From: a virus
Direction: 5' to 3' (one strand)
DNA length: 64,000 nucleotides
UHGV virus genome: UHGV-0084588
Position 1 is the stretch's first letter. Each line of letters starts with the position of its first letter. This document shows positions 1 to 47,307 of the stretch, in pieces. The notes beneath the pieces are model-generated. The model saw only the letters and a list, made by a program, of their open reading frames with translations. It did no database searches and was not told where the DNA came from. The translations under genes were made by a program, and so were the position numbers.

Positions 1-106
1 GTCATGCGTGGCCTGATTACTGTCCCTGGACCACAACCCAGTCGTGGGACTGTGAAGCGTAAAGCTTCGTACAGTAACCTGCCGAGATGGTGGTCGTAGG
101 TATAAT

Positions 107-135
107 AAAAAGGGGTGCACCACCACCCCTTTTCA
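107..135. terminator. hairpin with flanking A-run and T-run (bidirectional terminator candidate)
   Basis: aaaaaGGGGTGcaccaCCACCCCtttt. Confidence 0.4.
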
Positions 136-433
136 TAGCTTTAACTTTTCCAAAGAGAAGTTAAAGCAGCAGAGACTGGCGGAACAGTCTCTGCTGTACG
201 GTGTCAACACATAAAGTTGTTGACGTTTTTACAACATTACGAAAGGTAATGAAAAATGAACGAATATCAAATACAGATGTTCAATACCGCGATGCGAAAT
301 CGTGAAAAACAAATTCAGTTTAACCAACGCATGGACGAATATGTTCGTCTCGGCCTCGTTGCGGCACCGAAAACGGTTAACAACCACAATGTTCAGCAAC
401 CATCTCTAAGGAGATAAGTTACTAACTAATAAA

Positions 434-454
434 GGGGGTGGTGACAACACCCCC
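434..454 (-). terminator. hairpin followed by a T-run on the minus strand, downstream of 559-2121
   Basis: GGGGGTGgtgacaaCACCCCC with aataaa upstream on plus (T-run on minus). Confidence 0.4.
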
Positions 455-558
455 TACTTAGTTCGGTAGTTGTTTTCCGTTCATAATTAATAGCCTTCTG
501 TTTTTTTTGCTTTTCGAGACGCATAAGGGGTTATAGGGGGAGCCGAAGCTCCCCAGAC

Positions 559-2121
559 TCAAAAGAGTTCGTCACCCATGCCGCCGGTAAATACGTTAAT
601 CGACGAGGCTGTTACAGTTTCTTCTTTATCACAATCCCATGGCAAAATGCCAACATCACGGAAAGGTATTACAGTATAATGATAAGCTTCTTTGGTATCA
701 ATAATGGTACGGTGTTTACCGCGTTGTACTTCTAAATAGCTGTGACCGTTGACGACACGTTTGTTAAAATACATCTCACCGTCAGCTTCGTTGTCTAAGC
801 TAGAGCAGTTGTCGTAAAGACCACGACCAGGTAAGTTCTTACAGAAACTCGCTGGGTCGAGTGCTTTTAATTTTTTGCCTTCTGGTGAGATTTGGTGTGG
901 TGCTAACAGGAAACCACGATTACGTACCACTTGGATGTTTCGTGCGATACGATAAATTTCTTTAATGTCGCTACCCGCAATGCCGTTACCGTGCCCTGCT
1001 TTGCTGATAGTACCGAAATAGTCTCCGCGTATTCCAGCTACATGATAACCTCGACGTTTTAAATCTAAAATCAAATCATTTAAATAGTGAATTTTAAAAT
1101 CGGAGTTTGTGTGTTTTTGGAAAATATACTCCCAACCGTTCGCCCGCATTTTACTACAGAGGTAGTCTGACATTTGTGCATTATGTGACGCTTTTTCTTC
1201 GTCAGTTGCGGTTTCTGGCGCAACCATTACCGGGGCTGTACCTTCAAAGTGTCCGTAAAGTGCCTGATACGCGTAAGCCAAGTTAACATCCAATTCGTTT
1301 TCTAAACTTAAATCTAGAATAACCGGTTGTAGATCACCTTTAACATTCGCCATCACCTTTTCTGGGGTGTTGAAAACAGGAATGCTAATAGAGAGCAATA
1401 AACTGAATAATGACTTACAGTTAAAGGGGAGAGCAGGCATCAGCCAGAGTTCTTCGGTGATCCCTTTGTTACAACCGAGCATCTGGTTAATTGCTTTCCA
1501 ACCTGTACGCAACCCGTTCCCTGCCGCTTTCTTACTGATAGAGTCGAAAACGTGTACGAAAGGTGCTTTATTGTCAGTAATCAATTCCCCTACCAGAGAA
1601 GGAATCTTATTATGAGAGCGTTCACTGAACGTGGATAAGGTATCCTTAAGGTCGTTGAGCGCCGTTTGTAAATCAACGCGCGTTTCGGTACCGTTCAGTG
1701 CGCCTAACGTACGACCCAATTTTTGTTTCAGTTGTACGCCTTGAATAGCTTGACGTAACTGAAAGTAGTATTGTGCTACTTGGCGATTAAGATGCTCGAT
1801 GCGTGCTTCTGGTTCTTCTGGAATATCATCTTCCAGGAATTTGGTAATCGTATCGTATAGAGGACGTATTTGCGTAGTGGCCAGTTTCAAACGTTTCATG
1901 ACGTTTGTGTGGTCGTAAGGCATACCGCCGTCTATGATGGATGTGATGATATCCTTGATTTCGACGAGGGCGGCACGTTCGTCACCTTCCTCTGCGTAAT
2001 CAGGAAGCTTAGCCTCTAACAGCACTTTTCTTATGATGTCGTGGTCCTTTTCAGGATCGGTCAGAAGACTTTCAGCGTATAATGTGGCTAAGGCGGTTAT
2101 CAACATCATTTTGTTATTCAT
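559..2121 (-). CDS. hypothetical protein (520 aa)
   Basis: Long uninterrupted ORF; minus-strand hairpin with T-run lies just downstream (434-454). No motif I can assign. Confidence 0.6.
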   Translation of the reverse strand: MNNKMMLITALATLYAESLLTDPEKDHDIIRKVLLEAKLPDYAEEGDERAALVEIKDIITSIIDGGMPYDHTNVMKRLKLATTQIRPLYDTITKFLEDDIPEEPEARIEHLNRQVAQYYFQLRQAIQGVQLKQKLGRTLGALNGTETRVDLQTALNDLKDTLSTFSERSHNKIPSLVGELITDNKAPFVHVFDSISKKAAGNGLRTGWKAINQMLGCNKGITEELWLMPALPFNCKSLFSLLLSISIPVFNTPEKVMANVKGDLQPVILDLSLENELDVNLAYAYQALYGHFEGTAPVMVAPETATDEEKASHNAQMSDYLCSKMRANGWEYIFQKHTNSDFKIHYLNDLILDLKRRGYHVAGIRGDYFGTISKAGHGNGIAGSDIKEIYRIARNIQVVRNRGFLLAPHQISPEGKKLKALDPASFCKNLPGRGLYDNCSSLDNEADGEMYFNKRVVNGHSYLEVQRGKHRTIIDTKEAYHYTVIPFRDVGILPWDCDKEETVTASSINVFTGGMGDELF

Positions 2122-2671: not shown

Positions 2672-4966
2672 ATGAAAGATACCCGAATCTCTAATCTGGA
2701 GAAACTCGTACAAGCTGGTAACTCGCTGGTACAAAGCGTCATTAGTAACAACAGTGCTGGCGAAATGTGGAACACCATCGTTGCTGGTGAATCTGTACGT
2801 AGCAACACGAAAGTTTTTGGTACCCTGCGTGACGACGCTGCACAGCACTACGCAAACGCGTTTGCTGGCGGTAAGAAAATGTCCCACGCTGCGGAAGTTG
2901 CTTCTGCAATGATTCTGGGTGCTGCTGGTCACGGTATGGACCTGCAAGAAAAAGTAGCGCAAGAATACGCTAAACCAGAATTCCATAGCCGTTTTAACCT
3001 GGACGTTGCGATTCCTGGTTCCCAAGCTGGTAACGGCGACTGGGGCAAAGAGCGTATGGTTGTCGCTCAGGAATACTACACCAACAAAGACTACGACAAA
3101 AACCTGGGTCTGACCTGGACGCTGAACGTACGTGCTCTGGAAACTCAGTCTCGTTTCGCTGAGACTCTGTTCCCGACCATTACCGTTGACACCAACGATG
3201 TTGGTATTACCGTACGTACCAAAGTGACCACCGTTTCTCGCGGTGTAATGAACGCACTGCTGAGCAAAGACGTTGTTGAAGATCATCGTCGTCCGCTGCA
3301 CAACGCACTGACCGACCACACCGTTCTCCAGGACGAAGCGATCAACATCGTTCCTTACGTAATGGAAACCGGTGAAAACGCTGAATACTTCGTAAGCGAA
3401 GATCTGGTGCCGAACGAATCTGTTCGCCTGGGCCGTGTACCTCCGTACCCGACTAACTACCTGAGCTTTGCTAAAGACACTCTGAACCTGTTCCAGCTGT
3501 CTGCGCATCCGGGTATCGTTCAGGAAGGTTACGACGAAACTGATGAAATCGCACCGGGTTGTGCTCTGGGCAGCCTGCTGATTTCTGTACGTAAACCGAC
3601 CGAAGAAGCGAAAGCAGGTAAGTTCATCAAACTGCACGTTCGTGACATGCAGTTCGCAACCTTCCAGCGTCCTGCTGAAGGTGATGGCCGTGAGCTGGTA
3701 CTGCAATTCCGTCGTACTGCGTTCTCTCTGAACGCGAAAACTACCGACTGGACTGGTGCGGCTATTCCGGCACTGCAAGCGCTGGGTCAGAACTCTTACA
3801 CCCTGCGTTATGTGATCACCATCAACATGTCTCTGTTCACTACCGGTCAGTTCGGTGGTAAAGTTGACATCGCTGGTCACAAACTGGAAATCGAAGGTCT
3901 GTACGACGCTACCGGTAACAAAGTTGATACCAAATCTGGTACCGGCAAAGTTATCCTGGACGGTCTGAAACTTGAACTGATGGGCTGGCGCTTCGATGGT
4001 ACTCGTACCAACGAAAACCGTCGTACCCAGGGTCTGCTGCTTGACCCAATCTGGGAACAAGAAAACTACAAACTGCAATACGGTTCTCCGATTCTGACCA
4101 AGTCTCCGGTTGGCGTTGAATACGACGACACCGAACGTCTGGACGACCTGATTTCCGCAGTTAACATCCGTAACGAACAGCTGGCTATCACTCAGACGCT
4201 GTCTTACACCGAAGCGGTACGTAACGCTGCTGCAAGCATGATCACTCCGTGGGACAAACCGGCCATTCGTGGTCTGGGCCGTCACTGGGTTGCTCCGTGG
4301 TTCAAAGAGTCTGACTACAACGTTGATGAAGTTGTACAGTCCCTGGATACCAAAGATGCACTGATCAACGCTCGTCAGGGCCTGGTACAGCGTATCGGTA
4401 ATCAGGTAACTCAGGCTATCCAGGAATCTCGCTTCATTCCTGCGCTGCGTCTGTACACCGCCGATCCGGACATTCTGCCGAAAGTTGTTATTGCAACTGA
4501 CGAACCGACTGCATCTATGCTGCTGCTGGTACAGGGCGACCAACGTCTGCTGGGCGATCGCTACGAATACGAAGTGATCACCACCAACGATGACCGCTGG
4601 CGTATCTACAACGCAGCTGACGGTTCCTGGACTCGTCGTCTGCAATGGTTCCTGAAAGTTCCGACTGCGGACGATGGTTCCTACAACGTGCTGAACTGGG
4701 GTAACCACTTCTGGTCTCCGATCATGGTTACTAACATCAACATTCAGCGTAACGGCTCTACCTCTAAAGAGCTGGCCGTACAGCCGCGCAACGCACACAT
4801 CTGCCACTGCCCGATCACTGGTCTGATCTGGGTTAAAGGCATCACCAAACTGGTTGAAGAAAAACTGGCTTACAATGTTTCTGTTGAACAGAACGGTCAG
4901 AAGCAAACCGACGGTGGTGTAGCAGGTAACGTTGCTGGCGATGGCAAAGCTGCTGCTGGTAAGTAA
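2672..4966 (+). CDS. putative major capsid protein (764 aa, jumbo-phage size class)
   Basis: Strongest codon bias in the window (ctg, cgt, ggt, gaa, aaa dominate), SD taagg upstream, strong terminator directly downstream. Size matches phiKZ-type capsid proteins; homology was not verified. Confidence 0.5.
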   Translation: MKDTRISNLEKLVQAGNSLVQSVISNNSAGEMWNTIVAGESVRSNTKVFGTLRDDAAQHYANAFAGGKKMSHAAEVASAMILGAAGHGMDLQEKVAQEYAKPEFHSRFNLDVAIPGSQAGNGDWGKERMVVAQEYYTNKDYDKNLGLTWTLNVRALETQSRFAETLFPTITVDTNDVGITVRTKVTTVSRGVMNALLSKDVVEDHRRPLHNALTDHTVLQDEAINIVPYVMETGENAEYFVSEDLVPNESVRLGRVPPYPTNYLSFAKDTLNLFQLSAHPGIVQEGYDETDEIAPGCALGSLLISVRKPTEEAKAGKFIKLHVRDMQFATFQRPAEGDGRELVLQFRRTAFSLNAKTTDWTGAAIPALQALGQNSYTLRYVITINMSLFTTGQFGGKVDIAGHKLEIEGLYDATGNKVDTKSGTGKVILDGLKLELMGWRFDGTRTNENRRTQGLLLDPIWEQENYKLQYGSPILTKSPVGVEYDDTERLDDLISAVNIRNEQLAITQTLSYTEAVRNAAASMITPWDKPAIRGLGRHWVAPWFKESDYNVDEVVQSLDTKDALINARQGLVQRIGNQVTQAIQESRFIPALRLYTADPDILPKVVIATDEPTASMLLLVQGDQRLLGDRYEYEVITTNDDRWRIYNAADGSWTRRLQWFLKVPTADDGSYNVLNWGNHFWSPIMVTNINIQRNGSTSKELAVQPRNAHICHCPITGLIWVKGITKLVEEKLAYNVSVEQNGQKQTDGGVAGNVAGDGKAAAGK

Positions 4967-25304: not shown

Positions 25305-25350
25305 CTCAGATATATATTACTTAAGTGAGAGTTACAATTAACTCTTTACA
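25305..25350 (+). promoter_or_regulatory. conserved promoter-like element with downstream inverted repeat
   Basis: CTCAGATATATATTACttaaGTGAGAGTT...AACTCT, 45-75 nt upstream of the HTH gene. Confidence 0.45.
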
Positions 25351-43352: not shown

Positions 43353-43398
43353 CTCAGATATATATTACCTAGGGGAGAGTGAAATTTACATTCACTCC
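43353..43398 (+). promoter_or_regulatory. conserved promoter-like element with downstream inverted repeat
   Basis: CTCAGATATATATTACCTAGGgGAGAGTGAAatttacaTTCACTCC upstream of 43426. Confidence 0.45.
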
Positions 43399-47260: not shown

Positions 47261-47307
47261 TTCAGATATATATTACCTAGGTGAGAGTTCAGTTACTCTC
47301 ACTTAAC
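47261..47307 (+). promoter_or_regulatory. conserved promoter-like element with perfect palindrome
   Basis: TTCAGATATATATTACCTAGGTGAGAGTtcagttACTCTCACTTAACG upstream of 47332. Confidence 0.45.

Follow-up and report, generated by a model that had tools for sequence, protein, structure and literature searches.

Small ORFans of T4-like phages are flanked by a composite motif termed PeSL (promoter-early stem-loop) that includes a terminator stem-loop (PMC2839356, PMC4122927). Early promoters in phages akin to phiKZ are extended, conserved and AT-rich (PMC5312081). In Salmonella phage SPN3US gp70 is an essential non-virion protein (PMC5105663, PMC5694885); there is no mention in these two SPN3US papers of gp71 and gp72, the small genes that follow it.

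We have analyzed a 64,000-nt stretch of viral DNA (UHGV-0084588, hereafter the window). Its source is a jumbo phage that is kin to SPN3US and to Erwinia phage phiEaH2, with ~78% nucleotide identity across conserved genes. A small gene near its left end occupies the position that matches gp71 and gp72. The genes of the region are:

1-99, plus strand: 3′ end (last 32 codons and stop) of a paralog of the small gene, designated type F below; the window starts inside this gene, which is 61 aa at full length in relatives
256-417, plus strand: the small gene, 53 aa, examined by orthologues, codon-position and pN/pS tests, a family HMM and an AlphaFold model
559-2121, minus strand: divDNAB/DnaB-like helicase, 520 aa, adjoining the small gene and convergent with it
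2135-2659: gene of 174 aa, next to the helicase
2672-4966: PhiKZ-type major capsid gene

The locus resembles the PeSL regions in having small genes in a plastic region with a conserved composite regulatory motif. The terminator stem-loop of that motif is represented here by the hairpin H1 (below) and the hairpin at 433-455, with compensatory changes, and inter-motif recombination generating indels, swaps and hybrids among close relatives is found here too. There are also clear differences. The cassette motif has no sigma-70-like early promoter, it is confined to one array rather than scattered through the genome, and the genes of the array are paralogs of a single family, not unrelated ORFans. 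Moreover, unlike the T4-like hosts of PeSL, the studied members of this phage group use their own RNA polymerases (PMC5312081).

General searches added little to this. Neither the region 1-560 (blastn, distant mode) nor the 53-aa peptide (tblastn) gave a useful match in 50,697 phage records; the query is short and Q/N-rich, and the nearest relatives are absent from that collection. No tRNA or tmRNA was found. At permissive E-values nothing in Rfam came near its gathering score; the best match, ylbH, scored 19.6 bits where 50 are required. Large apparent intergenic gaps elsewhere in the window were considered as further arrays and rejected, as they are artefacts of crude gene calling.

Evidence that 256-417 encodes a protein

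The frame begins with ATG at 256 and ends with the TAA at 415-417, giving 53 codons and a translation (MNEYQIQMFNTAMR...) identical to that in the preliminary description. The first 3 kb alone contain 44 ORFs of 20 aa or more, so a length of 53 codons is ordinary by chance. Since chance ORFs of such length are common, the significance of 256-417 has to be judged from comparative data only.

A search of 5.8 billion proteins returned 10 orthologues that are 79-96% identical. Their sources are phage contigs of ~220 kb (up to ~227 kb) in Shigella assemblies, E. coli assemblies and metagenomes. The DNA of the relatives was retrieved, and every orthologue lies between a 271-aa gene and the convergent divDNAB helicase. 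One metagenomic contig (L013) has a run of N at 2873-2882, immediately after the terminator hairpin, that does not affect the analysis. The start codon and the Shine-Dalgarno sequence (SD) are conserved among the relatives.

Substitutions were examined in codons 1-43 of eight haplotypes, i.e. 129 nucleotide columns. Of these 27 are variable, and 17 of the 27 fall at codon position 3 (binomial P = 0.0015). Summed over pairs, pN/pS is 0.13 in the frame of 256-417, compared with 1.9-2.8 in the other two forward frames. The reverse frames give 1.6, 0.27 and 2.5; the 0.27 belongs to a minus-strand frame without a listed ORF of that length, and is taken as an echo of the plus-strand codon phase. Comparison of the window with three more distant orthologues (L006, L009 and L017) gives Sd of 14-15 and Nd of 6. 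In a nucleotide alignment of the relatives there are no indels in codons 1-43. The first occurs at codon ~44, and the sequence beyond it is hypervariable, where frameshifting deletions of 16 and 23 nt lead to products of 45-64 aa. Judged by this pattern of change, the first ~43 residues are constrained while the last ~10 codons can change freely.

The SD and the ATG are separated by a run of 4-6 A (251-255 in the window, with equivalents in L006, L013 and L014). A change in the length of this run shifts the upstream frame, and the ATG equivalent to 256 is the sole consistent start. N-terminally extended calls of 79-83 aa (P0004, P0007 and P0008) are artefacts of a 1-nt change in the run. Two overlapping frames were rejected as genes: the minus-strand ORF 229-399, the frame of which has the pN/pS of 1.6 and which contains stops in most relatives, and the plus-strand ORF 302-409, in view of the values of 1.9-2.8 for the other forward frames.

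Taken together, the comparison of relatives shows 256-417 to be a genuine protein-coding gene under purifying selection. The preliminary description had proposed conservation of the frame in related phages as a test, and the frame is indeed conserved. Of its two suggestions, a small regulatory protein or a non-coding sequence, the second is now discarded; coding is borne out, and a regulatory role finds no support here.

A tandem array of paralogous mini-genes

SPN3US has two annotated 48-aa genes at the matching position, SPN3US_0071 and SPN3US_0072 (gp71 and gp72), lying after gp70 and convergent with the helicase gp73. They share with the window peptide the motif K-Q-x-Q-F-N-Q-R-[VM]. In the relatives, the interval from the 271-aa gene, which corresponds to gp70, to the helicase contains a tandem series of diverged small ORFs, one to three in number and 45-61 aa in length, that align colinearly. 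We sorted the mini-ORFs into eight types: A (the 256-417 gene), B, C, D, E, F and, from SPN3US, S1 and S2.

That the types are related was examined with profiles. An HMM built without A-type members scored the window peptide at 22.5 bits, where the best of 5000 composition-matched shuffles reached 14.8, and an HMM from the SPN3US-type members alone gave 15.1 bits. Alignment of A against S by hhalign had a probability of 85% over 16 columns. When the non-A HMM was run against all stop-to-stop segments in the six frames of the 64 kb, 256-417 and the segment +1_96 matched, each with E = 6e-6; the next had E = 0.24. Pairwise profile comparisons connect the types in a chain (A-D 27 bits, D-B 40, A-S2 15-17, E-S1 20 and S1-S2 51).

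The 61-aa ORF at 2659-2844 of L014 ends in a sequence that matches the translation of 1-99 (MRGLITVPGPQPSRGTVKRKASYSNLPRWWS), as do P0029 and P0040. The order in the window is thus F-A, as in L014. With an F-type 3′ end at 1-99, the window begins inside the array, and it shows only the helicase side of the slot between the gp70-like gene and the convergent helicase that is seen in the relatives.

An exhaustive search with a profile among 1.84 billion cluster representatives yielded 13 members in all, and we conclude that the family is confined to the SPN3US-like phage lineage. One of these, the new member P0064, combines an A-type core (NEYARLGLVASP) with a B/D-type tail, TQFITEKR. The tail feature of the family is a C-terminal hydrophobic triplet followed by [DEN]-[KR]-[KR]-S; it is complete in P0064, and the window copy keeps only the terminal RR. 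Searches of Pfam, NCBIfam and PDB sequences with the 53-aa peptide gave no meaningful match to a characterised family. PHROG 18219 (annotated 'unknown function') corresponds to S1 and S2 only. It is matched by gp71 and gp72 at 1e-27 and weakly by the C and E paralogs (0.086 and 0.0048), and no PHROG, that model included, matches the window copy at E<=1.

Gp71 and gp72 resemble the window copy in slot, in size class (48 aa) and in the N-terminal motif in its wider form, K-Q-x-x-F-[NQ]-Q-R-[VLM]. Each is bracketed by GC hairpins, and in the leader of gp71 a GC hairpin comes after an AT-rich one, analogous to the leader in the window. By contrast, the identity is only ~19-25%, the PHROG model misses the window copy, and the tail IKGLGG-hydrophobic-NK(S/K) of the SPN3US proteins is replaced by a degenerate ...QQPSLRR.

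From these sequence relationships 256-417 is shown to be the helicase-proximal member of a tandem array of one to three paralogous mini-genes in SPN3US-like jumbo phages, and gp71 and gp72 of SPN3US (PHROG 18219) to be distant members of the family in the same genomic position. In phiEaH2 the array is wholly absent, with no copy at the locus, so the mini-genes are dispensable in at least one lineage.

Recombination between cassettes

The composition of the array differs among close relatives, where we find A, C-A, F-A, B-A, D-A, C*-D-A and E-B-A. Products of exchange are also seen. The protein P0017 is a hybrid of E type with an F tail, and in L005 the A gene stands behind a D-type leader. There are remnants, namely an F tail in L003 and L013 and, at L003 2355-2450, a 3′ end that is all that is left of a D-type gene. 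In L006 (2895-2935) the part of an E ORF that lay between the SD AGGAGAA and the last codons, AGGAGAAGTAAC (AGG AGA AGT AAC), has apparently been deleted. Such comparisons show that cassettes have been gained, lost and recombined among close relatives, giving hybrids, swapped leaders and remnants.

The encoded protein

AlphaFold2, using the family alignment, predicts a single helix for residues 3-31 with pLDDT ~90; the remainder is of low confidence, with pLDDT <50 from residue 43. The 53-aa peptide is polar and basic and has no hydrophobic stretch. Its net charge is +4 (the family median is +5.5) and 26% of its residues are Q or N. The helix is likewise Q/N-rich and not arginine-rich, with 4 R in 29 residues. 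Conservation across the family is concentrated in one stripe along the helix, comprising K18, Q19, F22 (nearly invariant), R25, M26 and Y29. In the predicted model this stripe fits a short helical ligand for a partner.

Lambda CIII, a 54-aa inhibitor of FtsH, is a small single-helix phage effector. The 53-aa protein is similar to CIII in length and in its predicted build, i.e. one amphipathic helix followed by an unstructured tail, and the accessory early function proposed below for the 256-417 gene would be a further likeness to effectors of this type. There is no sequence similarity between the two, and the likeness is a broad one.

Structure of the cassette leader

Structure is exceptionally strong in the 150 nt preceding the ATG (z = -8.95 for 100-270). 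The elements of the leader are:

108-133, plus strand: H1, a GC-rich hairpin followed by a T-rich sequence; from its fold a terminator-like end of the upstream cassette
138-167, plus strand: H2, an AT-rich 13-bp hairpin (GCTTTAACTTTTC-CAAA-GAGAAGTTAAAGC), the hallmark of internal cassettes
168-195, plus strand: H3, a GC-rich 11-bp hairpin abutting H2, variable in sequence and conserved in structure
203-224, plus strand: H4, a 7-bp hairpin with covarying pairs, found by RNAalifold
235-251, plus strand: H5, a small hairpin (CATTAC-GAAAG-GTAATG) that by its fold presents the SD

The preliminary description had the frame bracketed by two hairpins, at 107-135 and 434-454. Both are real, with stems at 108-117/124-133 and 433-440/448-455, but the picture was incomplete since there are four more hairpins in the leader and the whole is a repeated cassette architecture.

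Covariation was examined in 13 leaders from five cassette types, and RNAalifold independently recovers H1 to H4. Changes on both sides of the stem are found in four of the 10 pairs of H1, in eight of the 11 pairs of H3 and in five of the seven pairs of H4; the cells of H3 are 100% paired, and 90% of those of H4. H1 was not flagged in a simple terminator scan, and H3 is also flagged as terminator-like on the minus strand. H5 is present in eight of nine A-type leaders, where an A-to-G change gives a G.U pair. The SD AAAGG occupies 242-246, ending 9 nt before the ATG, and every paralog type has its own SD 5-10 nt before its ATG.

H2 behaves differently from its neighbours. Its sequence is nearly invariant: 5/33 columns vary, where the hairpins next to it have 19/28 and 21/30. 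In the 13 leaders its pairing is complete (100%), with one A:U-to-U:A swap and one fixed U.G pair. Where a pair is not Watson-Crick it is G.U as read on the plus strand (15 cells, including a fixed pair); the L020 copy has further U.G pairs together with one contrary C-A mismatch, which would be G.U on the other strand. The loop varies between CAAA, CGAA, GAAAA, GAATA and GAAA. H2 is lacking from the first cassette of each array, i.e. that directly after the terminator of the 271-aa gene. The 64-kb window has a single copy of H2. Of two ~225-kb IMG/VR contigs, one likewise has one copy and the other has two, 400 nt apart. We therefore rejected H2 as a genome-wide promoter or mobile motif, or as a dispersed repeat.

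These data show that an internal copy is a self-contained cassette comprising a terminator hairpin, H2, the covarying H3 and H4, an SD, the ORF and a terminator. The hairpins are probably terminators and structures that stabilise or process the mRNA at its 5′ or 3′ end, while H2 may be either a cassette-specific promoter or operator, or an RNA element.

Promoters in and around the array

No recognisable promoter was found in the leader of 256-417. The sole sigma-70-like match is TTTACA-18-AAAAAT (228-257), which scores 9/12, overlaps the ATG and is at the level of chance. A sigma-70 promoter made up of TTGACG (220-225) with GGTAAT as -10 was rejected, as its spacer is 19 nt and its -35 lies inside a covarying stem.

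The AT-rich motif TCAGATATATATTAC has three exact copies on the plus strand, at 25306-25320, 43354-43368 and 47262-47276, all intergenic. A terminator T-tract precedes each copy, and downstream of the copy come a variable hairpin and a gene, in that order. The three sites are candidate early (virion RNA polymerase) promoters. A motif of this early-promoter-like kind is absent from the 256-417 leader. In the relatives it is found (GATATATATTAC) ~70 nt upstream of a 47-aa gene that heads the block 47-aa gene / 271-aa gene / array. It is present in 15 of 20 fetched loci, these being the 15 that cover that region, SPN3US included. Given the AT-rich early promoters of phiKZ type, the position of the array downstream of this motif leads us to infer that it belongs to an early block.

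We note that uniform intrinsic terminators occur at many intergenic sites of the window (e.g. 5008, 9964, 17969, 20748, 25295, 29910, 30957 and 43334). In each, TTT[AC]TTTTT comes after a hairpin rich in GC, the loop of which is often UUCG or GNRA-like.

Possible functions of H2 and the status of the reading frame

The strongest competing explanation is that H2 is a cassette-specific DNA promoter or operator and H3 the 5′-terminal hairpin of the mRNA, so that the mini-genes would be independent transcription units of the PeSL kind. With a terminator ahead of every cassette, the mini-genes require promoters of their own. The putative early promoters at 25306, 43354 and 47262 likewise have a conserved AT-rich element with a variable hairpin directly after it, and the PeSL cassettes of T4-like phages also pair a promoter with a stem-loop (PMC2839356). 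Yet H2 resembles neither the early-promoter-like motif nor the sigma-70 consensus, it is limited to one copy, or two copies 400 nt apart, in the two ~225-kb contigs, and the G.U pattern favours an RNA structure. We regard this explanation as possible, though it is clearly the less probable one.

If H2 acts as RNA, the basic helical proteins might bind the hairpin ahead of their own genes and thereby govern termination or translation throughout the array, in the manner of N/boxB or by autoregulation. No other non-coding element has its sequence kept in all of the internal cassettes, and where H2 departs from Watson-Crick pairing it mostly has G.U on the plus strand, as would fit a plus-strand RNA; some of its loops are GAAAA or GAAA, and the proteins are basic (family median +5.5) with a conserved helix face. 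Against this, the loop is variable, H2 is missing from the cassette that opens each array, the helix is rich in Q and N and not in arginine, and the C-A mismatch of the L020 copy would pair as G.U on the other strand. Unlike lambda N/boxB, there is no arginine-rich N-terminal motif, nor a conserved GNRA-like loop. In its broadest form the array would be an RNA-protein regulatory system in which the helix face recognises H2, as RNA or extruded DNA, switching termination, translation or initiation by a phage RNA polymerase. We consider binding of H2 by the proteins improbable, in the narrower as in the broader form. If true, it would be a device like boxB/N, or like a hairpin promoter, in a phage group without a known example.

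The structure of the region might also suggest that there is no gene here at all, and that a chance ORF lies in a structured non-coding spacer of terminators and UTRs between convergent genes. The extreme structure of 100-270, the frequency of frames this long by chance and the lack of a blastn or tblastn match in the annotated phage collection are all in line with this. However, a chance frame would account neither for the third-position excess and a pN/pS of ~0.1 in this very frame, nor for the retention of the start codon and SD, nor for homology to paralogs annotated as genes in SPN3US. Note also that the coding core (27/129 columns variable) is less variable than the surrounding hairpins (19/28 and 21/30). 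Comparison of the sequences practically refutes this explanation.

The downstream hairpin and the helicase side

The region between the two convergent genes contains one further feature:

433-455, minus strand: terminator hairpin common to the convergent genes, which the terminator scan flags for the minus strand alone, with T-tract TTATTAGTT

Since the T-tract is on the minus strand, the hairpin is mainly the terminator of the helicase gene. In the plus-strand mRNA of the small gene the same sequence would form the 3′ hairpin. The stem shows compensatory changes among relatives, e.g. AGTAGGGG/CCCCTACT versus AGCAGGGG/CCCCTGCT.

On the minus strand, the ~100 nt (456-558) that lead from the helicase stop (559-561) to the terminator at 455-433 are strongly conserved. 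They contain a hairpin GGGGAGC-UUCG-GCUCCCC (554-537), the motif TTATGCGTC (527-519) and a run of eight A. The hairpin and the motif are kept in SPN3US and phiEaH2, where the sequence is otherwise divergent. This element could be a structured 3′ UTR, or a late promoter of the TATG type driving an RNA of ~90 nt.

The convergence of the small ORF with this conserved element and its TATG-like motif, TATG being the late promoter of phiKZ (PMC5312081), might suggest a type I toxin-antitoxin-like system in which a toxic peptide is controlled by antisense RNA from TTATGCGTC, but this is the least probable explanation of all: the peptide is polar and basic with no hydrophobic membrane-spanning segment, the terminator at 455-433 precedes the ORF so that RNA started at TTATGCGTC would not overlap 256-417, and phiEaH2 has the motif and no small ORF.

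DISCUSSION

The reading that best unites these observations is that 256-417 is a real gene within an array of recombining cassettes, and that its product would be an accessory, probably early, binder acting through its helix; we put the probability of this joint reading at about 0.8. Several points weigh against it. Every cassette is separated from the next by a terminator while no promoter can be recognised in the leader, phiEaH2 does without the array, and the protein matches no characterised family.

The part of this reading that concerns the role of the 53-aa protein, as an accessory, probably early, helix-mediated binder, is held with modest confidence. The array would be an accessory gene set, probably expressed early in view of the early-promoter-like motif upstream of it. 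The proteins would probably bind a partner from the host or the phage through the helix face formed by K18, Q19, F22, R25, M26 and Y29, and the paralogs would diversify as in other plasticity regions of phages.

A small hypothetical gene family in a plastic region of a phage genome is a kind already known. 256-417 is an ordinary but tidy overlooked small phage gene, and nothing in it overturns current understanding. It does add a real gene that length cut-offs miss. It also places the 'hypothetical' gp71 and gp72 in a wider, fast-recombining family of single-helix mini-proteins that is specific to the SPN3US-like jumbo phages. The cassette leader, with its invariant and covarying hairpins, is a compact candidate for control of transcription or of RNA in a lineage in which we found no described promoters, and the invariant hairpin H2 is the most interesting loose end. 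Since diversifying arrays of small early genes are the usual home of factors for host takeover and counter-defence, the family is a reasonable target for functional screens.
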